64,000 nt of DNA from positions 489 to 64,488 of the forward strand of contig CAILXX010000007.1 of the NCBI GenBank assembly GCA_903838295.1. The letters are read 5' to 3'. Both the position numbers and the translations under genes were made by a program. Shown in pieces: positions 12,851 through 52,591 of this stretch. Origin of the DNA: an uncultured Actinomycetes bacterium (GTDB lineage Bacteria > Actinomycetota > Actinomycetes > Nanopelagicales > Nanopelagicaceae). The notes below the pieces were generated by a model that was given only the letters and a program-made list of their open reading frames with translations, did not search any database and was not told the DNA's origin. Position 1 is the first letter of the stretch; every line of letters begins with the position of its first letter.

Positions 12851-12934
12851 CTGCAAATAGTGGCATAAATTGAGCTTTATGTACCTGCATTCGCAGGGGG
12901 TACTCTTACAGCACACAGTAAATAGGAGCCCCGC

Positions 12935-14671
12935 TTGCTAACTCAGATTTTGAAGACCTATCTTCGCCCATATAAGAAGCAGGTATATCTGATCATCCTG
13001 ATGCTGCTTATTCAGGCGATCGCTAGCTTGTACTTGCCCAATTTAAACGCAGATTTGATCAACAACGGCGTCGCCAAGGGAAATATTAGTTATATCTGGC
13101 ATATCGGCGAGATTATGTTGGGCTCCAGCGCGCTGGTCATGGGCGCATCTGTCCTATTAGCTTTCTTAGCAGCGCGAGTTGCAATGGCTTTTGGCCGCGA
13201 TTTACGCGGCGCGGTTTTTACTGCAGTAGAAGGTTTTTCTGCGCGCGAGCTAAATAAATTTGGCGCACCATCTCTGATTACTCGTAATACCAACGATGTG
13301 CAGCAAGTACAGCTGGTTTTGTTCATGGGATTTACGATGATGATCGGCGCACCTATTACCGGATTCGGCGCGATTATTATGGCGCTCCGTTCGAACCTTC
13401 GACTTTCAAGTCTTTTGCTAGTTGCAATTCCCGTGATGGCAGTGCTGATTATCTTCTTGCTTCGCAGAATAGTTCCGGCCTTTAGAGATATGCAGATTAA
13501 GATTGATCGAATCAATTTGGTTTTACGCGAGCAGATTGCCGGAGTCAGAGTTATCCGTGCCTTTGTTAAGACGCGGCAAGAAGAAGAACGATTTGCTCAA
13601 GCTTCTGGCGACTTGATGCAGACTCAATTATTAGTCACGCGCACTTTTGCAATTATGTTCCCAGCTCTATCGATGATTTTAAACTTATCGTCGGTTGCGG
13701 TCATTTGGTTTGGAGCAAAACTTATTAATTCAGGTAATCTGCAGATTGGCAATATGACGGCATTTCTTTCGTACATAATGCTGATATTGAGCAGCGTAAT
13801 GATGGCAGTTTTTATGTCATTGCAGATTCCCCGTGCTGCTGCTTGTGCCGAACGAATTCAAGAGGTGTTGAATACAAAGTCTTCAGTTGTGGATACTTTG
13901 ACACCGATTACTCCTGATGCACATACGGGTTTGGTGGAATTTAAAGATGCAGAATTCCGCTATCCAGGTGCCGAACATCCGATTCTTTCAGGTATATCTT
14001 TCACGGCTCGGCCAGGACAATTTACGGCGATCATCGGTTCGACAGGTTCGGGAAAGACGACCCTACTTAATTTGATTCCACGATTTATTGATGTGACCAA
14101 AGGAGCCGTCTTGATTGACGGCGTTGATGTTAGGGAGCAATCCCTTGAAGGCATCTGGTCAGATATTGGATTGGTGCCGCAGCGCTCATTTCTCTTCGGC
14201 GGGAGCGTTGCGCAGAATCTTAGGTTTGCTAAAGCAGATGCCACAGAAGCAGAGATGTGGGCGGCGCTAGAGATTGCACAGGCTCGCAATTTTGTCGAAG
14301 AGTTGCCAGATAAATTGGAGTCACGTGTAGCTCAGGGTGGAACCAACTTCTCTGGTGGTCAACGTCAACGCCTGTCTATTGCGCGTGCATTGGTGAAGAA
14401 GCCACAAATCCTGATCTTTGATGATTCTTTTAGTGCACTTGATTACACAACAGACTCCAAATTGAGGACCGCTTTGCATTCCGAAGTTGCCCACACAACC
14501 ATGATTGTGGTGGCCCAACGTGTATCAACTATTTTGAGTGCAGATCAGATCATTGTCTTGGACGAAGGTAAGATTGTTGGAATCGGTAATCATGCGGATT
14601 TAATGAAGCAGAGCAGTACCTATCAAGAAATTGTGTTGTCGCAATTAAGTCCAGAAGAGGCGGCATCATGA
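12935..14671 (+). CDS. ABC exporter, fused permease/ATPase (heterodimer partner 1)
   Basis: Six-TM region, then Walker A GSTGSGKTT, signature FSGGQRQR and Walker B ILIFDDSFS. AGGAG lies 7 nt before the TTG start. Confidence 0.9.
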   Translation: MLTQILKTYLRPYKKQVYLIILMLLIQAIASLYLPNLNADLINNGVAKGNISYIWHIGEIMLGSSALVMGASVLLAFLAARVAMAFGRDLRGAVFTAVEGFSARELNKFGAPSLITRNTNDVQQVQLVLFMGFTMMIGAPITGFGAIIMALRSNLRLSSLLLVAIPVMAVLIIFLLRRIVPAFRDMQIKIDRINLVLREQIAGVRVIRAFVKTRQEEERFAQASGDLMQTQLLVTRTFAIMFPALSMILNLSSVAVIWFGAKLINSGNLQIGNMTAFLSYIMLILSSVMMAVFMSLQIPRAAACAERIQEVLNTKSSVVDTLTPITPDAHTGLVEFKDAEFRYPGAEHPILSGISFTARPGQFTAIIGSTGSGKTTLLNLIPRFIDVTKGAVLIDGVDVREQSLEGIWSDIGLVPQRSFLFGGSVAQNLRFAKADATEAEMWAALEIAQARNFVEELPDKLESRVAQGGTNFSGGQRQRLSIARALVKKPQILIFDDSFSALDYTTDSKLRTALHSEVAHTTMIVVAQRVSTILSADQIIVLDEGKIVGIGNHADLMKQSSTYQEIVLSQLSPEEAAS

Positions 14672-16629
14672 GCATGCAGCGTCCGGCGCAAGCGCCTACG
14701 ACCGCGGCGCGTCCAGGTGGTGGACCAATGGCGGGCATGATGGGTGCTCCACCTCAGAAATCTAAAGATTTTAAGGGTTCGCTAAAAAGACTTCTTCGTG
14801 AAGTCGGGGCCGAACGTAAGAGTTTGTATGCCGTGTTTATCCTTATTACATCTGCCGTAACAATTGGTTCATTTGGTCCAAAAATCCTAGGTCATGCAAC
14901 CAATGATATTTTTACGGGGTTCTTAGGGCACAAGATGCCAGCGGGGCTTACCAAAGATCAAGTAGTGGCCGGATTGCGTGCTAAAGGTGAAAATACTTTG
15001 GCGGACGTTGTTAATAAGAGTGGTGTCATACCTGGTAAGGGAATGGACTTTACCGCTATCGCACATTGGATCTCTTTGGCTATCGGCTTGTACATAATCT
15101 CTTCGTTCTTCTTATGGCTTCAGCAATACTTAATGGCTGGCGTGACCCAGAAGACCGTCTTCCGGTTGCGTCGATTAGCCGAAGAGAAGATTGGGCGCCT
15201 GCCACTTAGCTATTTTGATGGGACTTCTCGTGGAGACCTTCTGTCGCGTGTAACCAATGACGTTGACAACATTTCTACATCGATGCAGCAAGGTCTGTCT
15301 CAGATTCTGAACTCTGTGCTGACAGTTGTTTCTGTGCTGATCATGATGGTCTGGATTAGTCCATTATTGGCGGTTGTCTCTTTGATCGCGATTCCCTTGT
15401 CTATGTTCGCGTCGATCAGAATCGCCAAGGCATCCCAAAAACAATTTATTGCGCAATGGGACTGGACCGGCAAATTAAATGGCCATGTCGAAGAAATGCA
15501 CACCGGTGCGGCTTTGGTCAAGGTATTTGGCCGTCGCAGGCAAGCGATTACTGACTTTGGGGATTTAAATGAAAATCTCAATAAGTCATCCTTTAATGCT
15601 CAATTTATGTCGGGCATCATCATGCCGACAACAACTTTTATTTCTAATCTGATATACGTTGGAATTTCGGTACTTGGTGGATACCGGGTCGCAACAGGTT
15701 CGATGTCGCTGGGGGATGTGCAGGCTTTCATTCAGTATTCACGACAATTTGGAATGCCACTGGCGCAGATTGCTGGTTTAATGAACGTTGTTCAGTCTGG
15801 GGTCGCATCTGCTGAACGTCTCTTTGAATTATTGGATGCTTCAGAAGAATCACAAGATAAAACAGATGCGATCGTCATGGAGCGTGCCAGTGGTGCAATC
15901 GCATTCAAGGATGTTTCATTCAGGTATAAAGAAGATCAACCTCTGATTGAACACTTTAATCTCGATGTAAAACCTGGACAGACGATTGCCATTGTCGGAC
16001 CAACTGGCGCGGGCAAGACAACATTGGTTAATTTGATCATGCGCTTTTACGAAATCCAAGGTGGCAGCATTACGTTGGACGGAGTCGATACTCGAAATCT
16101 GACAAGAGATGATTTACGCAAACAATTTGGTATGGTCCTGCAAGAGACCTGGTTGTTCAGCGGAAGCATGCGAGAAAATATTGCATTTGGTACTTCGGAT
16201 CCAACTCACGACAAGGTTGTAGCCGCTGCAAAGGCGGCAAATATCGATCACTTCCTGCGCGGTTTGCCAGATGGTTATGACTCTCTGTTGACCGATGACA
16301 ATGCCACGGTCTCTAACGGAGAACGGCAGCTGCTCACCATCGCGCGGGCCTTTATGGCCGACCCAGCGATCCTTATCCTTGACGAAGCGACCTCTTCGGT
16401 GGACACCAGAACTGAAGTCTTGGTTCAGCAGGCGATGGCAAAGCTGCGAAGCGGCCGTACTTCATTTGTTATTGCTCATCGGCTATCGACGATTCGAGAT
16501 GCCGACGTGATCCTGGTTATGGACAAGGGTTCGCTGGTAGAACAAGGCGGGCACGAAGAATTGATGGCAAATAAAGGGTTTTATTTTGACTTGTATGCCA
16601 GCCAATTTGCTTCTGCTTTGGAAGGCTAA
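14668..16629 (+). CDS. ABC exporter, fused permease/ATPase (heterodimer partner 2)
   Basis: 4-nt overlap with the upstream gene. TM region, then GPTGAGKTT, SNGERQLL and ILILDEATS. Confidence 0.9.
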   Translation: MSMQRPAQAPTTAARPGGGPMAGMMGAPPQKSKDFKGSLKRLLREVGAERKSLYAVFILITSAVTIGSFGPKILGHATNDIFTGFLGHKMPAGLTKDQVVAGLRAKGENTLADVVNKSGVIPGKGMDFTAIAHWISLAIGLYIISSFFLWLQQYLMAGVTQKTVFRLRRLAEEKIGRLPLSYFDGTSRGDLLSRVTNDVDNISTSMQQGLSQILNSVLTVVSVLIMMVWISPLLAVVSLIAIPLSMFASIRIAKASQKQFIAQWDWTGKLNGHVEEMHTGAALVKVFGRRRQAITDFGDLNENLNKSSFNAQFMSGIIMPTTTFISNLIYVGISVLGGYRVATGSMSLGDVQAFIQYSRQFGMPLAQIAGLMNVVQSGVASAERLFELLDASEESQDKTDAIVMERASGAIAFKDVSFRYKEDQPLIEHFNLDVKPGQTIAIVGPTGAGKTTLVNLIMRFYEIQGGSITLDGVDTRNLTRDDLRKQFGMVLQETWLFSGSMRENIAFGTSDPTHDKVVAAAKAANIDHFLRGLPDGYDSLLTDDNATVSNGERQLLTIARAFMADPAILILDEATSSVDTRTEVLVQQAMAKLRSGRTSFVIAHRLSTIRDADVILVMDKGSLVEQGGHEELMANKGFYFDLYASQFASALEG

Positions 16630-23609: not shown

Positions 23610-23623
23610 TGCAATCGATTGCG
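23610..23623. promoter_or_regulatory. LacI-type operator candidate, site 1 (TGCAATCGATTGCG)
   Basis: 14-bp near-palindrome with a central CG, directly abutting the RBS of the minus-strand hydrolase gene. One of five related sites. Confidence 0.6.
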
Positions 23624-25729: not shown

Positions 25730-25743
25730 TGCAAACGATTGCA
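25730..25743. promoter_or_regulatory. LacI-type operator candidate, site 2 (TGCAAACGATTGCA)
   Basis: 14-bp palindrome (one central asymmetry) placed over the predicted +1 of the 25699/25721 promoter. Confidence 0.65.
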
Positions 25744-29411: not shown

Positions 29412-29425
29412 TGCAAACGATTGCG
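29412..29425. promoter_or_regulatory. LacI-type operator candidate, site 3 (TGCAAACGATTGCG)
   Basis: Same 14-mer family, immediately downstream of the -10 element and 44 nt upstream of the binding-protein ATG. Confidence 0.65.
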
Positions 29426-39042: not shown

Positions 39043-39056
39043 AGCAAACGATTGCA
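39043..39056. promoter_or_regulatory. LacI-type operator candidate, site 4 (AGCAAACGATTGCA)
   Basis: Sits in the 86-bp divergent gap between 39012(-) and 39099(+). One outer-position mismatch to the consensus. Confidence 0.55.
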
Positions 39057-43607: not shown

Positions 43608-44660
43608 TTAGAGGTGATCGACCATCCAGTCACCGGCTAGTGGGTGATACAGGTACGGATAGTTATTACAGACGTGATTGCCGTCATCAATCATAACTAG
43701 CTTGGCATTCTTCGCCTCTGCCACGACTCTTTCTGCGTGCTGATACGGAACCAAGCGATCTTTCTTACCAAAGATAACAAGTAATGGCTGCGTAAGATTC
43801 TGCAAGCACCCTTCGAGGGTGATGCTGTCAGCGACTTTTCTTGCCTCATCTTCAGTTGATGCGCCAGAATATTGATAAAAGGCGGCGCGACTAATCGGTG
43901 GGCGTGCGTCGTATCGACTTCCGGTGTCATACGAACCACCAACCGTGACTGCTACCTTAATACGCGAATCATGCGCGGCGCTTCTGGCAGCGTAATAGCC
44001 GCCCATACTGACGCCTACTACTCCAAGTCGTTCTGCATCGATATCTTTACGAGTTAAAAGTTCATCGATAGCTACTTTGATCGCGCTCTCATAATTTGGT
44101 CTCAGTGGAAAGTAAAAACCAGATTCGCCTTGACCGGGTCCATCGAATGAGAATGTTGCAAGACCGCGAGTGATAAATACATTCTCCCAATTAAAGAATT
44201 CTTCTTTGGTCGAATCAAGTCCTGGTAGCAAGATCACCACTGGTGGATGGCTTACACCTGCTGGCTTTCGCAAGTTACCAACTAACTGGTGGCCTTCGAA
44301 TGGAATTTCTACTCTTTCAGCGCTTGAATCCAAATTTTTATGGGCACGCAGTAAAGCATCGATTGACTTCTCTGTTGCCATTTTATGTTTTGCCATATCT
44401 AAAACCCATACAAATTTTGCGAAGTGATAACTCAGGGCAGCGCGATTCCAGGCATTCCCGGCGCTTATTTTGTGTCCTGCCACTTCTGCTTCACTCGCTA
44501 GTCCCGCGTGCATATCACCGTTAGCTACCCATGCATCTAGCCACTGAGACCAAGTTTCAAGGCTATTGGTTACACGCGCAAAATCATTGGCATCGACGCC
44601 TTGAGTTATAAATCTTGGTGCCCAATGATCTATGGCTGATTGAATATCGGAATCTCTCAT
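43608..44660 (-). CDS. Alpha/beta hydrolase, DHPON-hydrolase-like, paralog 3
   Basis: HWAPRFITQGVDANDFARVT...YHFAKFVWV, PGLDSTKEEF and the nucleophile elbow GVSMGGYYA. TAGCAT-N6-ATG on the minus strand in the 34-nt gap after the LacI gene. Confidence 0.8.
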   Translation of the reverse strand: MRDSDIQSAIDHWAPRFITQGVDANDFARVTNSLETWSQWLDAWVANGDMHAGLASEAEVAGHKISAGNAWNRAALSYHFAKFVWVLDMAKHKMATEKSIDALLRAHKNLDSSAERVEIPFEGHQLVGNLRKPAGVSHPPVVILLPGLDSTKEEFFNWENVFITRGLATFSFDGPGQGESGFYFPLRPNYESAIKVAIDELLTRKDIDAERLGVVGVSMGGYYAARSAAHDSRIKVAVTVGGSYDTGSRYDARPPISRAAFYQYSGASTEDEARKVADSITLEGCLQNLTQPLLVIFGKKDRLVPYQHAERVVAEAKNAKLVMIDDGNHVCNNYPYLYHPLAGDWMVDHL

Positions 44661-44694: not shown

Positions 44695-45714
44695 CTACTT
44701 TTTCAGAACTGGACCCGTTGACTCGCGGACGACAAGGGTCACCGGCAAGGTGATTTTTCTTGGCCCAGGTTCATTTCCTTGGATCTGACTGAGCAATAAT
44801 CGCGCAGCTTCTGCGCCCATTTCAAAATGTGGCGCACTTACTGTTGTCATCGGAGGCTGAAAATCTTCTGAGAATGGCATGTTATTGAATCCTATGACCG
44901 AAATATCTTGTGGTGTGCGAAGACCGTGTTGACGAATTGCGTGGTAGACGCCCAACGCTAACAAATCATTACCTGCAACCACTGCGGTGATCTCTTTCGG
45001 ATGTGCGTCCAAAAATTTATTCATCGCCATTTGGCCGGCCTCTACTGAAAGCGTGGTTGCCTTTACAATTTTTGTAGTCAGTCCTAACCGTTTTGCAGTA
45101 TCTGTGAATGCTGTGCTTCGGACCCGTGATGTAGAAAGCGTGGCTGGTCCAGAAAGATGAAGTATTTTTTTGTGGCCGAGTTTGACTAGATGTTCGAGTG
45201 CTGATGCGATTCCAGACGCATCATCTCCAATAACAGATGGATAGGGAACACCGGAAGCTTCACGGTTAACCATCACAGCTTTAACTCCTTGATTGTGATA
45301 TTTGGCGATCATGCTTCTTTCGGTATGGCCAGTTGCAATTATCAGGCCATCAACTTGGCGTTCCATTAACGAATCAAAGAGTGCATCTTCTACGGCCGCA
45401 TTGTTATCGGTATTGACGACCATCGCTGAATAGCCGCGTGACTGCAAGACGCTGTCGACACCTCGAACTATCGGTGGAAAAATTGGATTTGTGAGATCTG
45501 GCACGATGACGCCGATTGTCATGGATTTACGAGTTCGCAATCCGCGAGCCATTGTGTTGGGGGTATATCCAAGTTCTTGCGCAATTTTGCGGACCCTTTT
45601 CACGGTTTCTGCGCTTACCTGACCTTCGGTCTCGCTGTTGAGCGATCGCGAAACCGTACTGGTGTTAACCCCAGCCGCCTTGGCTACATCGGCCAAAGTC
45701 ACTCGATTACGCAT
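44695..45714 (-). CDS. LacI/GalR-family transcriptional regulator
   Basis: N-terminal HTH VTLADVAKAAGVNTSTVSRSLN, the hinge GYTPNTMARGLRT, then a type-1 periplasmic-binding-fold core. TAGTGT-N6-ATG on the minus strand. Confidence 0.9.
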   Translation of the reverse strand: MRNRVTLADVAKAAGVNTSTVSRSLNSETEGQVSAETVKRVRKIAQELGYTPNTMARGLRTRKSMTIGVIVPDLTNPIFPPIVRGVDSVLQSRGYSAMVVNTDNNAAVEDALFDSLMERQVDGLIIATGHTERSMIAKYHNQGVKAVMVNREASGVPYPSVIGDDASGIASALEHLVKLGHKKILHLSGPATLSTSRVRSTAFTDTAKRLGLTTKIVKATTLSVEAGQMAMNKFLDAHPKEITAVVAGNDLLALGVYHAIRQHGLRTPQDISVIGFNNMPFSEDFQPPMTTVSAPHFEMGAEAARLLLSQIQGNEPGPRKITLPVTLVVRESTGPVLKK

Positions 45715-45743: not shown

Positions 45744-45772
45744 TTGACGAGGGGGCACAGGTCATCAATAAT
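45744..45772 (+). promoter_or_regulatory. Candidate promoter of the 45820 operon
   Basis: TTGACG (45744-45749), a 17-nt spacer, then AATAAT (45767-45772). The operator begins 8 nt downstream. Confidence 0.4.
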
Positions 45773-45779
45773 GGTTCAG

Positions 45780-45793
45780 TGCAATCGATTGCA
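45780..45793. promoter_or_regulatory. LacI-type operator candidate, site 5 (TGCAATCGATTGCA, perfect palindrome)
   Basis: Perfect 14-bp palindrome in the divergent gap between the LacI gene and the 45820 operon, just downstream of the -10 element of the + strand promoter. Confidence 0.7.
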
Positions 45794-45819
45794 CGCATTC
45801 TGACAATGAGGAGCACTTT

Positions 45820-46761
45820 ATGACCATCAGTCCAAAGCCAACTATCGGTTGGATCGGTGCGGGGCGTATGGGATTCCAGTTGGCCACTCGACTTTTAGAT
45901 GCAGGGCACGATGTCACCGTTTATAACCGGACGCGTGCAAAAGCAGAGCCACTGGTGCAAAAAGGCGCAAAGGTTGTTGATCATCCAAGTGAACTTGCAG
46001 GACTCGACGTTGTTTTTATTATGGTCTCTGCACCAAAAGATTTAGAAGATGTCACTATGGGCGCCAATGGCGTATTGACCGTTGACGGCAAATCTCCCAA
46101 AGTAATTATTGATTCATCAACTGTATCAACCGAAGTATCGGAGAAGGTTCGAGCATTTGCTAAAACTAAGGGCACAGAACTCCTTGCAGCCCCTGTCAGC
46201 GGAAATCCAGCTGTAATTGCAGCTGGGAAACTTACCGTTGCGGTTTCTGGACCTAAAGATGTTTACGAACAAGTTGCAGGATTGATCAATCTCTTTGGCC
46301 GCAAGGTTACGTATGTGGGCGAAGCAGAAGTTGCTCGCCTAGTAAAGATCGCGCATAACATCATGCTTGGTGTCGTCACACAGACACTGGCAGAGATCAT
46401 AACGTTGACCGAAAAAGCCGGCGTAGAACGCGCGGCATTCTTAGAATTCCTCAACGATTCAGTGATGGGATCAACATTTACTAAATACAAGTCCCCATCA
46501 ATTGTTAATTTAGATTTCACACCAACATTTACGATTCCGCTCCTTCTGAAGGATTTTGATCTTGGACTTGACGCGGCTCATGAGCTTAAAGTTCCGATGC
46601 CAATTACATCTGCGGCGCAACAAATCACCGCTTCTGCTTTAGGAGCAGGGTATGTTGATGAAGATTTTATGGTTCTCCTTATAGAACAAGCCCGCCGCTC
46701 TGGAATGACACTAGTTTCTGAAAATAAGAAAGTATTGAGTGGACTGGAAGTGGAAAAATAA
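45820..46761 (+). CDS. NAD(P)-dependent oxidoreductase, 3-hydroxyisobutyrate-dehydrogenase family (second copy)
   Basis: Rossmann motif IGWIGAGRMG, LLAAPVSGNP and a helical C-terminal domain. GAGGAG RBS. Confidence 0.85.
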   Translation: MTISPKPTIGWIGAGRMGFQLATRLLDAGHDVTVYNRTRAKAEPLVQKGAKVVDHPSELAGLDVVFIMVSAPKDLEDVTMGANGVLTVDGKSPKVIIDSSTVSTEVSEKVRAFAKTKGTELLAAPVSGNPAVIAAGKLTVAVSGPKDVYEQVAGLINLFGRKVTYVGEAEVARLVKIAHNIMLGVVTQTLAEIITLTEKAGVERAAFLEFLNDSVMGSTFTKYKSPSIVNLDFTPTFTIPLLLKDFDLGLDAAHELKVPMPITSAAQQITASALGAGYVDEDFMVLLIEQARRSGMTLVSENKKVLSGLEVEK

Positions 46762-48005
46762 TGGCCAACACCCCTCAACTACAAGCGCCAGGCCACATGG
46801 GTGTTGACTATGAGATGCGCGTGGATTTTGATCGGTTGCGTAAATATCGGATTGGTCGTGCGAAGGCCTCGTTAGAGGCAAGTAAGTGCGGAGCTTTTTT
46901 GCTCTTTGATTTTTACAATATTCGTTACACAACTCAGTCGTGGGTTGGTGGAGCTCTTGGTGACAAGATGACTCGTTATTCATTGCTCACTCGCGGGGGC
47001 GAACCCATGCTGTGGGATTTTGGTTCTGCTGTCCGTCACCACAAGTTGTATTCGCCATGGCTGAAAGAAGAGAACAATCGTCCAGGAATGCTTGGTATGC
47101 GCGGTGCAGTTGCACCGTCTGCTGGCTTGATGGAGTCAGCTGTTAAAGAGATCAAAGGTTTATTGATTGACGCTGGCGTCGCTGATCAACCAGTAGGTAT
47201 TGATATCGTCGAACCCGCATTTTTATTTGAAATGCAACGTCAAGGTCTAACCGTGGTTGATTGTCAGCAAGACATGCTTGATGCTCGGGTAATTAAGAAC
47301 CAAGACGAAATTATGTTGCTAAATCAAGCGGCAGCGATGGTTGATGGCGTCTATCAAAATATTGTTGACGTCCTGAAGCCTGGCATCCGCGAAAATGAGA
47401 TCGTTGCTCTAGCAAACAAGCGTTTGTACGAGATGGGTTCAGATCAAGTCGAAGCAATCAATGCGATCTCTGGCGAACGCTGCAATCCTCATCCGCACAA
47501 TTTCACCGACCGGATTATCCGCCCAGGAGATCAAGCTTTCTTTGACATCATCCATTCATTCAATGGATATCGCACTTGTTATTACCGCACATTTGCAGTG
47601 GGCAGTTCTACCCCGTCACAACGTGACGCATATACAAAGGCGCGTGAGTGGATGGACGCCGCAATCAATGCAGTAAAGGTCGGAACAGATACAGCTGCTA
47701 TTGCAAAGGTCTGGCCAAAGGCAGAAGAATTTGGCTTTGCCAGTGAACTTGCCGCCTTTGGGTTGCAGTTTGGACACGGCCTGGGCCTTGGACTTCACGA
47801 GCGTCCAATTATTTCTAGGCTCAATAGTTTAGAAAACCCGGTCGAAATTCGCCCAGGCATGGTCTTTGCACTCGAAACGTATTGCCCAGCTTCCGATGGT
47901 TTCTCTGCAGCGCGTATCGAAGAAGAAGTGGTTGTCACAGATAATGGAATTCATATTTTGACGAAGTTTCCGGCCCAAGAACTCTTTGTGGCTAACCCTT
48001 ACTAA
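46761..48005 (+). CDS. M24-family metalloenzyme (creatinase/Xaa-Pro peptidase fold), DddP-like
   Basis: Pita-bread C-terminal half with DIIHSFNGYRTCYYRTF, QFGHGLGLGLHERP, VFALETYCPASDGFSAARIEEEVVVT and TKFPAQELFVANPY. The N-terminal LLFDFYNIRYTTQSW resembles what I recall of DddP-type members (from memory only). Confidence 0.75.
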   Translation: MANTPQLQAPGHMGVDYEMRVDFDRLRKYRIGRAKASLEASKCGAFLLFDFYNIRYTTQSWVGGALGDKMTRYSLLTRGGEPMLWDFGSAVRHHKLYSPWLKEENNRPGMLGMRGAVAPSAGLMESAVKEIKGLLIDAGVADQPVGIDIVEPAFLFEMQRQGLTVVDCQQDMLDARVIKNQDEIMLLNQAAAMVDGVYQNIVDVLKPGIRENEIVALANKRLYEMGSDQVEAINAISGERCNPHPHNFTDRIIRPGDQAFFDIIHSFNGYRTCYYRTFAVGSSTPSQRDAYTKAREWMDAAINAVKVGTDTAAIAKVWPKAEEFGFASELAAFGLQFGHGLGLGLHERPIISRLNSLENPVEIRPGMVFALETYCPASDGFSAARIEEEVVVTDNGIHILTKFPAQELFVANPY

Positions 48006-48010
48006 TTACG

Positions 48011-48538
48011 ATGACAACCGGCAAAGGAATTCCTGGGTTACAACGTGTAGATCACGTTGGGATTACGGTGCCCAATTTAGAAGAAGCAACTCGATTCTTT
48101 ATTGATGTCTTAGGTTGCGAATATATGTACACGCTAGGGCCCTTTGCTAGCGATGAGAATTGGATGAAAGAACACTTGAATGTTGATCCACGTGCGGTAA
48201 TGAAAGAGCTACATTTCTTCAGGTTAAATGGTGCCGCGATTTTTGAAGTATTTGAATATCAAGCACCCGATCAGCAAACTTTCGTACCAAAGAACAGTGA
48301 CGTTGGTGGCCACCATGTTGCTTTATATGTCGATGATATGGAAGCTGCAATTGCGCACTTAAAGTCTCACGGAATCACAATGCTGGGCGAACCCACTGCA
48401 AGTAAAGGTCCGAGTGAAGGCCAGCATTGGTTATACTTTTTATCGCCTTGGGGAATGCAATTCGAATTAGTTTCGTATCCCAACGGCAAAGCTTTCGATC
48501 ACCACCCCGAGAAGTTCGTCAAGAAGGTAGTAAATTAA
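48011..48538 (+). CDS. VOC-family protein (glyoxalase / extradiol-dioxygenase fold)
   Basis: GLQRVDHVGITVPNLEEATRFFIDVLG and GGHHVALYVDDMEAAIAHLKSHG, typical paired beta-alpha-beta-beta-beta modules. Confidence 0.75.
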   Translation: MTTGKGIPGLQRVDHVGITVPNLEEATRFFIDVLGCEYMYTLGPFASDENWMKEHLNVDPRAVMKELHFFRLNGAAIFEVFEYQAPDQQTFVPKNSDVGGHHVALYVDDMEAAIAHLKSHGITMLGEPTASKGPSEGQHWLYFLSPWGMQFELVSYPNGKAFDHHPEKFVKKVVN

Positions 48539-50737
48539 ATGGCGCTTCATAATAAGCACAAATCCACTGCTCCTTGGCTAGAAGTAGTCGTTATGCCCTC
48601 GGACTGGGATAACGCAGATCCACAGGTACTCAACAATATGTTGGTCGAAATGGTTCTGATCCGTACCTTTGAAGAATATTTATTGGAACTTGCTGCTGCA
48701 ACGTTAATTCATGGGCCGGTTCATTCCAGCATTGGTCAAGAGGGTGGCGCAGTTGGTTCTGCGCTTTTGCTTCGCAGCGCCGATAGCGTAAATGGTTCGC
48801 ACCGTGGCCACCATCAATTCTTAGCGAAAGTTTTTACTCATTTACAGCCACAAGGGTATGACCCACGTGCCGAATTTTCGGCAGATATCCGTGATGCAGT
48901 GCTTCGAACAATGGCAGAAATTGCTGGCCTTGATCGCGGCTTTAGCCATGGTCGTGGTGGATCAATGCATTTACAGATGAAGGAAGCCGGCGCAATGGGT
49001 ACTAATGCCATCGTCGGTGGCGGAGTTCCGCTTGCCGCAGGTTTTGCGTGGTCCCATAAATTTGCAGGAACTGATGCAGTTTCTGTGACATATTTTGGTG
49101 ATGGTGCGATCAACATTGGATCGACGCTAGAAAGTTTCAACTTGGCTGCTGCCTGGAAACTACCGATCTGTTTCTTTATCGAAAATAATATGTACGCGGT
49201 TTCCACGCATGTTTTGGAATCCACCGGCGAACCTCGGTTGTCCGCCCGTGGCCAAGGTTTCAATATCCCAAGCTGGAAGGTTGATGGCATGAACCCACTT
49301 GCGGTTTATATCGCCATGACCGAAGCGGTTGCGCATATGCGCGCTGGTAACGGACCAACGATGATCGAAGCCGATGTCTATAGGTACTACCATCAGAGTG
49401 GCACCTTCCCTGGCAGCGCATTTGGTTATAGAACAAAAGAAGAAGAAGCAAGTTATAAAGCGCGTGATCCGATCTTGCAGGTATCTACACAAATGATTCG
49501 CCGTGGGCTTATAACCCAGCCAGAGATTGACTTGTTGATTGCTCGTGCTAAATCATTGATGTCCGATACTGGCAATATTCTGCTCGAACCTATTCCAGAT
49601 TCGAATCCACCTAAGCGCAAGATCAAAGATAGCGAATGGCCAGATCCAGCATTCGTTAATACTGGTGTCCGTGGCGATCTTTCAGAATTTAATGGGGCCA
49701 GGTATGCCGAACTTGAAAATTATGGGGGAGAAATCACCCAAGCCAAATTCATAGATTCTGTTGCAAATGTTTTGGGTCGTCAGTTAGAGAAAGACTCAAG
49801 TGTTGTGATCATGGGTGAAGATATTCACCGCTTAGCCGGTGGAACCAATGGTGCAACAAAAGGACTCAAGGATCGTTTCCCAGATCGTATTCTTGGTACT
49901 CCCATCAGCGAAAATGGTTTTACGGGCCTTGGCGGCGGTATCGCAATTGATGGCCGGTTCAAACCCATTGTGGAATTCATGTATGCCGACTTTATGTGGG
50001 TAGCAGCGGATCAAATTTTTAATCAGATCGGCAAGATGCGTCACATGTTTGGTGGTACCGGCGCAGTTCCATTTGTACTTCGCAGTAAGGTTGCAATGGG
50101 TACAGGGTATGGGTCACAGCATTCGATGGACCCCGCTGGAATCATGGCAACAAATCCCGGTTGGAGAATTGTTTCTCCGACGACTCCCTTTGATTATGTT
50201 GGACTCATGAACAGCGCAATCTTGTGTAAAGACCCTGTGATTGTCTTGGAGCACGTTGATTTATATAACTCAACCGGGCCGACCCCAACCACTGATCTGG
50301 ACTATTGCATCGAAGTAGGTAAGGCTGCGATTAGACGCCCTGGTAAAGATTTGACTGTACTCACGTATATGGCAATGACGCAGTACACACTTGATGGAGT
50401 TGCAGAATTTGGAGAGATTGATGCCGAAGTCATTGATCTGCGCTGGTTAGACCGCGCAAGCATTGACTGGGAAACAATCGGCAATTCGATTAAAAAGACT
50501 GGCCATGTTTTGATCACTGAACAAGGTGCAATCGGTACTTCCTATGGCGGATGGCTAGCGGATGAAATTCAACGCCGATTCTTCCATGAGCTCAAAGGGC
50601 CAATTGAGCGAGTCACCGGTGGGGAAGCCTCTCCTTCTATTAGCAAGGTATTAGAACGTGCCGCGATTGCAAAGAGTGAAGAAGTTGTCACCAAGCTGCG
50701 CTCGCTTTATGAGTCTGGCCGATTTAGCGGCAAGTGA
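48539..50737 (+). CDS. Fused E1 alpha-beta component of a TPP-dependent 2-oxoacid/acetoin dehydrogenase
   Basis: The N-terminal half is E1-alpha-like (HSSIGQEG, SHRGHH, YFGDGAINIG, ENNMYAVST). The C-terminal half is E1-beta-like (MGEDI, GTPISENGFTG, EFMYADFMW). It is a single 732-codon ORF starting 1 nt after the VOC stop. Confidence 0.85.
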   Translation: MALHNKHKSTAPWLEVVVMPSDWDNADPQVLNNMLVEMVLIRTFEEYLLELAAATLIHGPVHSSIGQEGGAVGSALLLRSADSVNGSHRGHHQFLAKVFTHLQPQGYDPRAEFSADIRDAVLRTMAEIAGLDRGFSHGRGGSMHLQMKEAGAMGTNAIVGGGVPLAAGFAWSHKFAGTDAVSVTYFGDGAINIGSTLESFNLAAAWKLPICFFIENNMYAVSTHVLESTGEPRLSARGQGFNIPSWKVDGMNPLAVYIAMTEAVAHMRAGNGPTMIEADVYRYYHQSGTFPGSAFGYRTKEEEASYKARDPILQVSTQMIRRGLITQPEIDLLIARAKSLMSDTGNILLEPIPDSNPPKRKIKDSEWPDPAFVNTGVRGDLSEFNGARYAELENYGGEITQAKFIDSVANVLGRQLEKDSSVVIMGEDIHRLAGGTNGATKGLKDRFPDRILGTPISENGFTGLGGGIAIDGRFKPIVEFMYADFMWVAADQIFNQIGKMRHMFGGTGAVPFVLRSKVAMGTGYGSQHSMDPAGIMATNPGWRIVSPTTPFDYVGLMNSAILCKDPVIVLEHVDLYNSTGPTPTTDLDYCIEVGKAAIRRPGKDLTVLTYMAMTQYTLDGVAEFGEIDAEVIDLRWLDRASIDWETIGNSIKKTGHVLITEQGAIGTSYGGWLADEIQRRFFHELKGPIERVTGGEASPSISKVLERAAIAKSEEVVTKLRSLYESGRFSGK

Positions 50738-50780: not shown

Positions 50781-51902
50781 ATGGCGAGCCCACGACTGAC
50801 CATTGCGATATTTCTAGCAAAGAGCGCAAGCATGGCTTCTCGAATCATGGGCAATAAGGGTGAGACTATTTCTGGACGAATTCTTCTTGCATTGGAACCA
50901 GAAGCAATTTCGTTATTGGCCCGCAAAAAGCAAGTAATTTTGATCTCTGGAACCAATGGAAAAACTTCTACGACCAGGGCAATTGCCGCAATAGTGCGTC
51001 AATTGGGAGCGGTGACGACAAGTGGTTCTGGATCAAATTTATCATGGGGTGCGGCGCACGCACTGATGTCCAAAGCTGCGTATGCAGTATTAGAAATTGA
51101 TGAACTTCATTTACCCACCGTTATAGCGCAGACCGACCCGGCAGTTGTTTTATTACTTAACTTAACGCGCGATCAATTGCACCGAATGCATGAAGTAAAA
51201 CGCGTGTCGGATCGTTGGCACGTGGAATGCACTGAAGCAAGTAATACCGTATTTGTGGCAGATATTGATGATCCGTTTATTAATTATGCGGTAGCCAATG
51301 CCACTAATGTTGTACGGGTTTCTTTCGGTGGGAGGCCACACCCAGATGGTGCGGTCTGCCCACGCTGTGGATCGTATTTAAAGTGGAAGAGCGGTAATTA
51401 TTCCTGCACATGTGGATTAACCAACAAAATCAGCGACCGCAAGTTTAAAAAAGGTTCAGCTGCAATGCGCAATGCAATCTTGGCCAATGTTGTGGGTGAA
51501 GTACTTGATGCCAAACCTATGAAATTTAAAGAGAGCGAATTAGAGCGGACTATCAGTAAAGCTTTTGGTGATAAAACTGCACATTTTAGATTGACCAAGA
51601 ATCCTGCGTCCTGGACCGAAGCTTTACAAGCCGATATCAAGAAAGATGTCATCTTGGTTTTAAACGCTCGTCAAGTAGATGGGATTGATACTTCTTGGTT
51701 GTGGGATCTTTCTTTTGCGCCACTTAAAGGCAAACGGATAATAGTTTGCGGTGAACGTGGCCTCGATATTGCTTATAGATTGCATGTCGAAGGCATCGAA
51801 TCAACAGTGGTCGATACCTTTGATCAAGCGATTGTTTTGACCAAGAACAAAGAGGTTTCGGTACTGTCTGCATACACCGCATTCTTTGAGCTGGTGATGT
51901 GA
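50781..51902 (+). CDS. murT: Lipid II isoglutaminyl synthase subunit MurT (Mur-ligase family)
   Basis: P-loop GTNGKTSTT, the zinc ribbon CPRCGSYLKWKSGNYSCTCG and a DUF1727-like C-terminus. Followed by gatD with a 4-nt overlap. TAGGCT-N6-ATG lies upstream. Confidence 0.85.
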   Translation: MASPRLTIAIFLAKSASMASRIMGNKGETISGRILLALEPEAISLLARKKQVILISGTNGKTSTTRAIAAIVRQLGAVTTSGSGSNLSWGAAHALMSKAAYAVLEIDELHLPTVIAQTDPAVVLLLNLTRDQLHRMHEVKRVSDRWHVECTEASNTVFVADIDDPFINYAVANATNVVRVSFGGRPHPDGAVCPRCGSYLKWKSGNYSCTCGLTNKISDRKFKKGSAAMRNAILANVVGEVLDAKPMKFKESELERTISKAFGDKTAHFRLTKNPASWTEALQADIKKDVILVLNARQVDGIDTSWLWDLSFAPLKGKRIIVCGERGLDIAYRLHVEGIESTVVDTFDQAIVLTKNKEVSVLSAYTAFFELVM

Positions 51903-52591
51903 TGCTAGAGATCATCAGAATTCATAATGAATTGTTAGGTACATACGGTGACCGAGGAAATGCAGATGTGCTTAAATTTAGGGCAGGGCTACGTGGCATT
52001 AAAGCAAAAGTGACGGATATTTCTTATATAGATGCACTACCCAAAGAGGGTGATATTTATTTATTGGGTGGAGCAGAAGATGCTGCTCAAATGTTGTCTT
52101 TGACTGCCCTTAAAAAAGGTATGACGTTAAATAAAGCTGCAGATAAAGGCGCGGTTCTTCTGGCCATATGTGCTGGATTTCAGATCGTTGGTTCTAGTTA
52201 TGTCACTCGCGACGAACAAGTAGCCGGCTTGGGTTTGCTCGATGTATCTACTAATCCTGGTGACAAGCGTTTGGTAGGTGATATTGCTATTGAATCGGAA
52301 TTCTTTGATGTTCCGTTGACGGGATTTGAAAATCACAGCGGAGTTACTACTTTGGGAACCGATGTCATGCCATTTGGAACAGTGCTATCAGGTAATGGAA
52401 ATGGTATTAACGGTGTTGATGGTGCAATTAGTGGGAATGTATTTGGTACATATTTACATGGACCAATACTGGCGCGTAACCCAGAATTTGCTGATCTATT
52501 ACTTGAAAGAGCGATGGGAATCCAAATTCCACACGTAACTGATGAGATTGCTGATCACTATGCGAAGTGGCGAAGAACAGTAATTAAATAG
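51899..52591 (+). CDS. gatD: Lipid II isoglutaminyl synthase glutaminase subunit GatD (CobB/CobQ-type GATase)
   Basis: Nucleophile context LLAICAGFQIVG and the His region GTYLHGPILARNP. Adjacent and coupled to murT. Confidence 0.85.
   Translation: MMLEIIRIHNELLGTYGDRGNADVLKFRAGLRGIKAKVTDISYIDALPKEGDIYLLGGAEDAAQMLSLTALKKGMTLNKAADKGAVLLAICAGFQIVGSSYVTRDEQVAGLGLLDVSTNPGDKRLVGDIAIESEFFDVPLTGFENHSGVTTLGTDVMPFGTVLSGNGNGINGVDGAISGNVFGTYLHGPILARNPEFADLLLERAMGIQIPHVTDEIADHYAKWRRTVIK

Follow-up and report, generated by a model that had tools for sequence, protein, structure and literature searches.

What becomes of the E1 component of a 2-oxoacid dehydrogenase complex when no gene for an E2 stands beside its own? 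The question is raised by a four-gene operon in a 64,000-nucleotide stretch of DNA (the window) from an uncultured member of the Nanopelagicaceae, covering positions 489 to 64,488 of contig CAILXX010000007.1. The last gene of the operon encodes a fused E1α–E1β protein dependent on thiamine pyrophosphate (TPP). We find that a dedicated E2 gene has been lost in the lineage of the window, and that the motif through which such an E1 docks onto E2 is rewritten, with a charge reversal, in an enzyme that keeps its cofactor and catalytic motifs. The reading we favour, in which our confidence is evenly balanced, is that this E1 would act as a stand-alone TPP decarboxylase of a 2-oxoacid and would feed an aldehyde dehydrogenase of the Aldedh family. 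The four genes are:

45820..46761, plus strand: HIBADH-family β-hydroxyacid dehydrogenase, 313 aa (Pfam NAD_binding_2 and NAD_binding_11)
46761..48005, plus strand: M24 pita-bread enzyme with a DddP-type N-terminal domain, 414 aa (Pfam Peptidase_M24; motif GYRTCYYRT)
48011..48538, plus strand: small VOC/glyoxalase-fold protein, 175 aa (Pfam Glyoxalase_4)
48539..50737, plus strand: fused E1 alpha-beta, TPP-dependent, of the heterotetrameric pyruvate dehydrogenase (PDH)/branched-chain 2-oxoacid dehydrogenase (BCKDH) type, 732 aa (Pfam E1_dh, Transket_pyr and Transketolase_C)

The intergenic gaps are -1, 5 and 0 nt. All four genes are under strong purifying selection, with nonsynonymous divergence (dN) of 0.05-0.12 and saturated synonymous divergence (dS) between the window and a sister genome (L011). 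An earlier note on this DNA, made from its letters alone, had placed E1 alpha and beta in one 732-aa chain, and the Pfam domains bear this out.

Loss of the dedicated E2 gene

The genome that contains the window comprises 1.46 Mb on 23 contigs and is 99% complete; close homologues carry Nanopelagicaceae names. Whole-genome searches found no gene for an E2 catalytic domain, a lipoyl domain or Lpd on the window's contig (C7), the sole copies lying on contigs C1 and C4, and thus upheld the earlier observation that the window holds neither E2 nor E3. Contig C1 carries an adjacent lpd-sucB pair (Lpd, 487 bits). Its SucB-like E2, of 540 aa, combines two lipoyl domains, a catalytic domain and a peripheral subunit-binding domain (PSBD, the domain of E2 where E1 docks), and is the only lipoylated E2 in the genome. 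An OdhA-like E2-E1o fusion of 1247 aa is encoded elsewhere, and AceE (1405 bits) on contig C17. With AceE present, we rejected the reading of the fused E1 as the E1 of housekeeping pyruvate dehydrogenase. The enzyme is therefore an orphan only at the level of its locus: the term used in the earlier note holds for the operon and the window and fails for the genome, which has both lpd-sucB and AceE.

The fused E1 is followed by MurT-like genes and not by a cognate E2 gene that would encode lipoyl, PSBD and catalytic domains. This neighbouring pair (window 50781-52591) encodes a MurT-like protein of 373 aa and a GatD-like protein of 230 aa; with 118 bits against 800 and 138 against 400, both fall far under the cut-offs for lipid II isoglutaminyl synthase, and the MurT-like protein is short.

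We surveyed 100 loci with a readable region downstream of E1 for an E2 gene. E2 lies directly behind E1 across these loci and is absent only in some Nanopelagicaceae relatives, one set being 89-90% identical to the window's E1 (L011, L012, G165 and L117) and the other 73-76% identical (L015-L017, L115 and L116). The dedicated E2 gene has been lost in the window's lineage. What the earlier note had called an orphan E1 reflects a recent, lineage-specific loss, set against some 100 homologous loci in which E2 directly follows the fused E1. In the tree, the E2-bearing loci L013 and L014 are sister to the window's clade (support 94/93), a placement that implies two losses of E2.

The slot left by E2 is occupied in several of these genomes. 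In the E2-less loci L011, L012 and L117, an Aldedh gene stands immediately behind E1, and the E2-bearing L013 and L014 end in E1-E2 without Aldedh, L013 lacking such a gene in 22 kb. This exchange of E2 for Aldedh between sister lineages would fit a change of route. We note that the ABC (ATP-binding cassette) exporter genes found behind Aldedh in L011 and L012 lie at 12921-16616 in the window.

Docking and catalytic residues of the fused E1

Alignments locate the docking motif of the fused E1 at the following codons.

50585..50596, plus strand: codons 683-686 (H-E-L-K), where the motif for docking to the E2 PSBD is rewritten

Among 97 E2-bearing loci, the corresponding residues read DWLD in 87, DYLD in seven, and DWLN, DLLD and DQLD in one each, so that position 686 is Asp in 96 of the 97. 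The window has HELK, and its closest relatives have KDLK, QDLK, SDLK, NDLK or HELR. When aligned with HMMER, Lys686 falls on Glu285 of Geobacillus stearothermophilus E1-beta and on Asp289 of human E1-beta (Asp319 of the precursor); the acidic residue with which heterotetrameric E1s dock onto the PSBD is thus a lysine in the window. In the human enzyme, D319 makes a crucial salt bridge to Lys residues of the E2 PSBD, and its replacement by Asn raises the dissociation constant of E1 and E2 more than 100-fold; the same D319N change is the mark of an E1 paralogue in goldfish and crucian carp which serves, free of E2, as a pyruvate decarboxylase (PMC5554223).

The PSBD of the genome's own SucB has the usual Arg/Lys residues, and Lys686 should therefore repel SucB docking. 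With an acid turned into a base at 686 and Trp into an acid at 684, canonical docking of the E1 of the window's clade to any PSBD looks unlikely. In fact, the earlier suggestion that this E1 may act without a canonical E2 gains support from the change of D-[W/Y]-L-D to H-E-L-K and the charge reversal that it brings. The DQLD sequence belongs to the one covalent E1-E2 fusion among these loci (L010), in which Gln has replaced Trp, as expected if covalent linkage makes docking superfluous. In some metagenome relatives (L010 781-3669, P0090, P0109 and P0117), the fused E1 continues in frame into an E2 catalytic domain, giving proteins of 962-991 aa.

The cofactor and catalytic motifs, by comparison, are retained. 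The TPP motif GDG(188)...NN, TPISENG, SQHS and the alpha-loop His285 are all present, together with the domain set of heterotetrameric E1s. The alpha-loop reads H285-Q286-S287 here and G-H263-S264 in human E1-alpha, and Gln occupies the position of the human catalytic His263 family-wide. A second alpha-loop feature, N287S, was dropped as a mark of E2-less enzymes once the family survey found Ser in several E2-bearing loci as well. The fused E1 is 89% identical to that of L011 (dN 0.083, dS saturated), and the retention of catalytic motifs with so low a dN indicates, at the level of sequence, an enzyme clearly in use. PDH-type models lead its NCBIfam matches, among which acetoin-type models are absent, and the E2 of its relatives is PDH-like (397 bits).

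A proposed stand-alone decarboxylase and its rivals

In the favoured reading, the E1 would have come off any E2 core and would, with TPP, decarboxylate a 2-oxoacid intermediate as a free enzyme, the resulting aldehyde being oxidised to the acid by an Aldedh resembling succinate-semialdehyde dehydrogenase (SSADH). An ancestral route from 2-oxoacid to acyl-CoA via E1/E2/E3 would then have given way to a derived one from 2-oxoacid to aldehyde to acid.

Several observations weigh against this reading. E1 components are poor at releasing aldehyde unless adapted to it, and the lpd-sucB pair in the genome makes borrowing of an E2 possible. One E2-bearing locus has DWLN, and residue 686 is thus not absolutely fixed even where E2 is present. 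In a second E2-less clade, the motif reads DFLE, EFLE, TFLD, TVLD or NLLE, which keeps an acid at 686 and either an aromatic or an aliphatic side chain at 684; as this motif is merely relaxed, the loss of docking is clear only in the window's own clade. A single E2-less clade is not rejected by the approximately unbiased test (p = 0.14), and with E2 lost only once or twice, the correlation between docking motif and E2 rests on few independent events. The Aldedh orthologue of the window's genome (81% identical) lies away from the operon on a 9.6-kb contig (C11), and a search for the operator near it found none. Finally, most E2-bearing clusters also carry Aldedh, which must then have a separate role too.

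The Aldedh gene on C11 (L107; 1353-2777, minus strand) is accompanied by genes for malic enzyme, uracil phosphoribosyltransferase, a deaminase and a permease, and these neighbours directly follow E1 in L015 and L115. Its position reflects either a genome rearrangement or an assembly break.

The alternative that has to be weighed first is that the E1 remains part of a 2-oxoacid dehydrogenase complex by borrowing the housekeeping SucB-like E2 and Lpd encoded on C1. We consider this unlikely, though it deserves to be taken seriously: the borrowed E2 would be complete in its lipoyl, PSBD and catalytic domains, one E2 is common to AceE and OdhA in corynebacteria and mycobacteria, the residues that would support reductive acylation (SQHS and alpha-loop His285) are retained, and the basic residue at 686 (K/R), conserved in the window's clade, could represent a new docking mode. 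Against it stand the lysine at the D319 equivalent facing a basic SucB PSBD, the additional loss of Trp684, and the Aldedh gene found in place of E2 in sister genomes.

The fused E1 is present twice in a further Nanopelagicaceae genome (G191). The first copy belongs to an E2-less M24-VOC-E1 locus (L124) and is 74% identical to the window's; the second (contig C13:25261-27429) is 64% identical, the same identity as that of the GntR-VOC/E1-E2 relatives. The E2-less E1 of this genome could borrow an E2, if the C13 copy adjoins one.

Rather improbable, in our view, is an E2-free C-C lyase or carboligase acting on an alpha-hydroxyketone or 1,2-diketone, in the manner of acetoin cleavage, which takes up the second possibility raised in the earlier note. 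Acetoin dehydrogenase family E1s do cleave alpha-hydroxyketones, the neighbouring dehydrogenase and VOC isomerase could make such a ketol, and the aldehyde product would likewise need Aldedh. The non-canonical loop, with Gln286 at the human catalytic His263 and a His one residue before it, would also suit such a reaction. However, both E1 halves and the relatives' E2 match PDH-type rather than acetoin-type proteins best, and the GntR/FCD regulator of the relatives' VOC/E1-E2 unit falls in a class that probably senses carboxylates in most cases.

Very little speaks for a decaying, functionless E1 left behind after the loss of E2: that E2 is gone and the docking motif degenerate would agree with it, whereas the 732-aa frame is intact, all cofactor and catalytic motifs are kept, divergence from L011 is held to the low dN given above at saturated dS, and the gene persists in several E2-less species and on many metagenome contigs.

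The M24 protein

The second gene of the operon poses a question of its own, since the earlier note had likened its product to DddP-type lyases rather than to peptidases. The motifs on which this likeness was based (NIRYTTQSW among them) are found in the sequence, and the pita-bread domain is recognised by PF00557 with 132.7 bits. In a single-sequence search, prolidases match the C-terminal domain only and DddP structures match over the full length; creatinase and DoeA score lower, at 30-36 bits. A library-wide HMMER search returned 533 cluster representatives (50% identity) at E <= 1e-30, and a profile of 30 diverse full-length members aligns end to end with the DddP structures 4S00, 4RZY and 4B28 (E 4e-59), prolidases ranking behind them. 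For the AlphaFold model (pLDDT 92.8), Foldseek likewise puts DddP first (TM 0.83, rmsd 2.7 Å, 22% identity), with prolidases at TM ~0.72. The protein thus has the two-domain fold with a DddP-type N-terminal domain.

The active site is a different matter. The DddP equivalog model NF043017 gives 91.3 bits (E 5.5e-26, residues 22-407) against a cut-off of 600. In DddP, the metal ligands D295, D297, D307, H371, E406 and E421 and the catalytic residues Tyr366 and Asp377 have been called invariant (PMC4108388). Four of the six ligands are kept here (D295 as D262, H371 as H339, E406 as E372 and E421 as E387), and the other two are altered (D297 to I264, D307 to C273), as are both catalytic residues (Y366 to G334, D377 to L345), so that four of eight key residues differ. 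The cysteine is encoded at the position below, as placed by alignments to prolidases and DddP.

47577..47579, plus strand: codon of Cys273, in place of the second metal-binding Asp (DddP D307)

Alignments to the prolidases 3Q6D, 1PV9 and 5CDL likewise put Cys273 at the second Asp, so that the protein lacks the complete D, D, H, E, E site. The Cys is at least 90% conserved among the 30 diverse family members, where it lies within GYRTCYYRT. The score under the cut-off and the altered residues led us to reject a true DddP, and the cysteine in place of the second metal-binding Asp an ordinary prolidase. The likeness to DddP is therefore right as to the nearest solved relative, by profile and by fold, and wrong as to function in so far as the equivalog cut-off and four key residues are concerned; the separation from peptidases stands, given the prolidase matches confined to the C-terminal domain and the cysteine at the second Asp. 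On these comparisons, we conclude that the M24 protein belongs to a sister family of DddP and is neither a dimethylsulfoniopropionate (DMSP) lyase nor an ordinary peptidase. Its dinuclear site is altered, as are those of creatinase and DoeA, which suggests a non-peptidase reaction.

A DddP-type DMSP lyase in an operon degrading DMSP, or a sulfonium or ammonium analogue, via acrylate and 3-hydroxypropionate is scarcely credible: DddP is the nearest solved relative, and the HIBADH-like enzyme and Aldedh could handle 3-hydroxypropionate, but the equivalog score is far too low (91 bits against 600), D297, D307, Y366 and D377 are replaced, the Aldedh is SSADH-like rather than of the CoA-acylating MmsA/DddC type, and the hosts are freshwater and soil actinobacteria.

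The M24 orthologue is 75-89% identical between Nanopelagicaceae and most other Actinomycetota, and the gene occurs at 87-98% identity on many metagenome contigs. A paralogous subfamily (P0297) is found in a context with PPDK_N/PEP-utilizer and Amidohydro_2 genes; this difference in context indicates that the M24 family overall is not tied to E1, and it offers no pointer to the substrate. Cys-variant M24 paralogues, 38% identical, were also seen in Acidimicrobiia and Phytohabitans (L118 9001-11473 and L119 9001-12994). In both loci, the M24 gene adjoins a gene for a PPDK_N/PEP-utilizer protein, which in L119 forms a single 916-aa chain with a 2-hydroxyacid dehydrogenase; with Amidohydro_2 and HMGL-like genes close by, this is a further module. 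None of the more than 500 clusters into which the family falls at 50% identity holds a characterised member, and its proteins are routinely mis-annotated as Xaa-Pro peptidase.

A conserved module in Actinomycetota

The window proteins and their Micromonospora neighbours were mapped onto 80 genome loci. The fused E1 is 68-76% identical to proteins of Streptomyces, Micromonospora, Planotetraspora, Blastococcus, Nocardioidaceae and others, with 70-76% identity to E2-linked orthologues across Actinomycetota, and within the Nanopelagicaceae it is present in 30 of 201 sampled genomes. A recurrent cluster emerges, in which HIBADH, M24 and Aldedh are joined by VOC, the fused E1 and an E2 that comprises lipoyl, PSBD and catalytic domains. 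An FrsA-like hydrolase is optional; a YciW-like protein, a two-subunit Mo-hydroxylase and a GntR regulator are often present, as is an HAAT-type ABC importer. In L013, a single operon comprises ABC importer, HIBADH, M24, VOC, E1 and E2, its transporter being homologous to the window's HAAT importer, and in Jatrophihabitans and Frankiales, the single operon also holds the Aldedh gene. The VOC/E1-E2 unit with GntR is found alone too, and the cluster can thus be viewed as the union of two modules. By gene content, the window operon is a streamlined, E2-less form of this Actinomycetota-wide module. Literature searches found no paper on it.

The remaining enzymes of the module give some indication of the chemistry. 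The HIBADH-like protein has both expected domains (NAD_binding_2, 133 bits; NAD_binding_11, 84 bits), and its best NCBIfam match is 2-hydroxy-3-oxopropionate (tartronate-semialdehyde) reductase, at 172 bits against a cut-off of 341. It reaches none of the NCBIfam equivalog cut-offs for HIBADH, tartronate semialdehyde reductase and L-threonate dehydrogenase. Its relatives in the PDB are succinic-semialdehyde and glyoxylate reductases, tartronate semialdehyde reductase and 2-hydroxymethylglutarate dehydrogenase. The best matches of the VOC protein, which are weak, are methylmalonyl-CoA epimerases, and its gene adjoins the fused E1 in all relatives mapped. The module Aldedh resembles SSADH, scoring 594 bits where the subfamily cut-off is 646, and is not of the CoA-acylating type; a valine/3-hydroxyisobutyrate pathway with an MmsA-type Aldedh was rejected on this ground. 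Pantothenate or pantoate, guanidino acids, N-heterocycles, hydroxyproline peptides, sugar acids and cyclitols were considered as substrates and found to be without support.

With low confidence at each step, we propose the following order of events. The M24 protein would cleave or open an imported compound, the HIBADH-like enzyme would oxidise a hydroxyl, the VOC protein would move the carbonyl via a metal-bound enediolate to give the 2-oxo form, and the PDH-like E1 would remove CO2.

The LacI regulon in the window

The operon lies behind a regulatory region that it shares with a divergent repressor gene, and further copies of its operator occur in the window.

44695..45714, minus strand: LacI-family repressor, divergent from the operon (Pfam LacI helix-turn-helix and Peripla_BP_1/3)
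43608..44660, minus strand: FrsA-like alpha/beta hydrolase, 350 aa, downstream of lacI (Pfam FrsA-like/Peptidase_S9/Abhydrolase)
45744..45772, plus strand: promoter-like TTGACG-17-AATAAT, 10/12 matches in a consensus scan and a pattern match only
45779..45794: operator GTGCAATCGATTGCAC, a perfect 16-bp CG-centred palindrome just 3' of the promoter-like site
23610..23623: operator-like site between the second FrsA-like hydrolase and the second HIBADH-like gene
25730..25743: operator-like site preceding an operon of an acetolactate synthase (ALS)-like TPP enzyme, a creatininase-fold hydrolase and a Zn-dependent alcohol dehydrogenase (Zn-ADH)
29412..29425: operator-like site at the start of an operon of HAAT-type ABC importer, acyl-CoA dehydrogenase (ACAD), FrsA-like hydrolase and DapA-like genes
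39043..39056: operator-like site that separates the gene for a CrtO-like FAD oxidoreductase from an operon of quinone oxidoreductase, major facilitator superfamily (MFS) transporter and CocE/NonD hydrolase genes

The tight coupling of the four genes behind a perfect operator, as first noticed in the earlier note, is confirmed by the coordinates of the open reading frames and by the palindrome at 45779-45794. Operator-like sites with <=2 mismatches number five in the window against 0.58 expected. In loci from Streptomyces, Micromonospora and Nanopelagicaceae, the same palindrome stands upstream of the gene for HIBADH or for the HAAT binding protein. A repressor with a LacI helix-turn-helix and a sugar-binding fold, and a palindromic operator that stands at promoters and is conserved in relatives, place the system among the LacI/GalR regulons; the best NCBIfam matches of the repressor are RbsR, CytR and UriR, each under its cut-off. 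The ALS-like operon stands directly beside lacI-HIBADH-M24-VOC-E1 in L115, and FrsA-like hydrolases 41-45% identical to the one downstream of lacI adjoin HIBADH-M24 in Micromonospora, Blastococcus and others.

With five operator sites before catabolic and transport operons, the four-gene operon would be one arm of a regulon that spans some 28 kb (window 22.5-50.7 kb). It is a LacI-controlled catabolic operon, probably for a small organic compound.

The other four operator-marked operons, at window 22526-43602, appear to be part of the same LacI regulon. Between them they encode three FrsA-like hydrolases, and the second HIBADH-like gene is accompanied by cupin and FAH-type hydratase genes. In Microtetraspora niveoalba (L051 9975-9988), a second operator copy lies immediately 5' of the fused E1, besides the copy upstream of HIBADH.

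Significance and comparison with known systems

The Nanopelagicaceae, or acI lineage, are by wide report some of the most numerous bacteria in fresh water. Together with the many metagenome contigs that carry the M24 gene, this abundance suggests that the module probably processes a common dissolved organic compound. One conserved LacI operator accompanies the module in several Actinomycetota lineages, from Streptomyces to freshwater Nanopelagicaceae. Among closely related genomes, the E1 may have an E2 beside it, lack one or be joined to one covalently, and its docking motif shifts accordingly; they amount to a natural experiment, and the locus offers a testable handle on how a component of a multienzyme complex turns into a free enzyme. 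In its most far-reaching form, which we put forward only tentatively and as one joint proposal, the E1 would have become a stand-alone decarboxylase, which would make it a parallel, in a free-living bacterium, to the ethanol pathway of goldfish, and the Cys-variant M24 protein would represent a new class with a thiolate metal site that opens an abundant freshwater and soil compound.

Several parts of the locus have known counterparts. The M24 protein shares with DddP (4S00, 4RZY and 4B28) the two-domain architecture including the N-terminal domain, and differs from it in genomic context and habitat. With Xaa-Pro dipeptidases, creatinase and DoeA it has the pita-bread catalytic domain in common; GYRTCYYRT, however, is specific to the window's family, and prolidases keep the second Asp. 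As in local catabolic regulons of the LacI/GalR type, the repressor gene is divergent, the palindrome lies just past the -10 element, and operator copies precede transport and catabolic operons; as in LacI/GalR regulons with CG-centred palindromes, the operator is conserved across orders. Unlike in known regulons of this type, the genes controlled here are not recognisable as sugar-catabolic.

The fused E1 resembles the heterotetrameric E1s of G. stearothermophilus PDH (1W85) and of human (3EXE) in its E1_dh, Transket_pyr and Transketolase_C domains, these being its best PDB matches at 140-182 bits, and in GDG...NN, the cofactor-activating Glu of TPISENG and the beta-subunit His of SQHS. It departs from them in the fusion of alpha and beta, in the lack of an adjacent E2, in Lys686 at the docking acid and in the Gln at alpha-His263. 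The closest parallel is offered by the crucian carp and goldfish E1 paralogues (PMC5554223), where a complex-derived E1 is likewise altered at the residue that salt-bridges the E2 PSBD, and where the aldehyde is proposed, as here, to go to a separate dehydrogenase. The window's enzyme differs from the fish paralogues in belonging to a bacterial catabolic operon, in changing D to K together with W to E instead of D to N, and in that its E2 gene was deleted and not bypassed; its aldehyde would be oxidised by Aldedh, not reduced by alcohol dehydrogenase. In sum, the operon sets an E1 that has probably come away from its complex beside a new subfamily of M24 enzymes.

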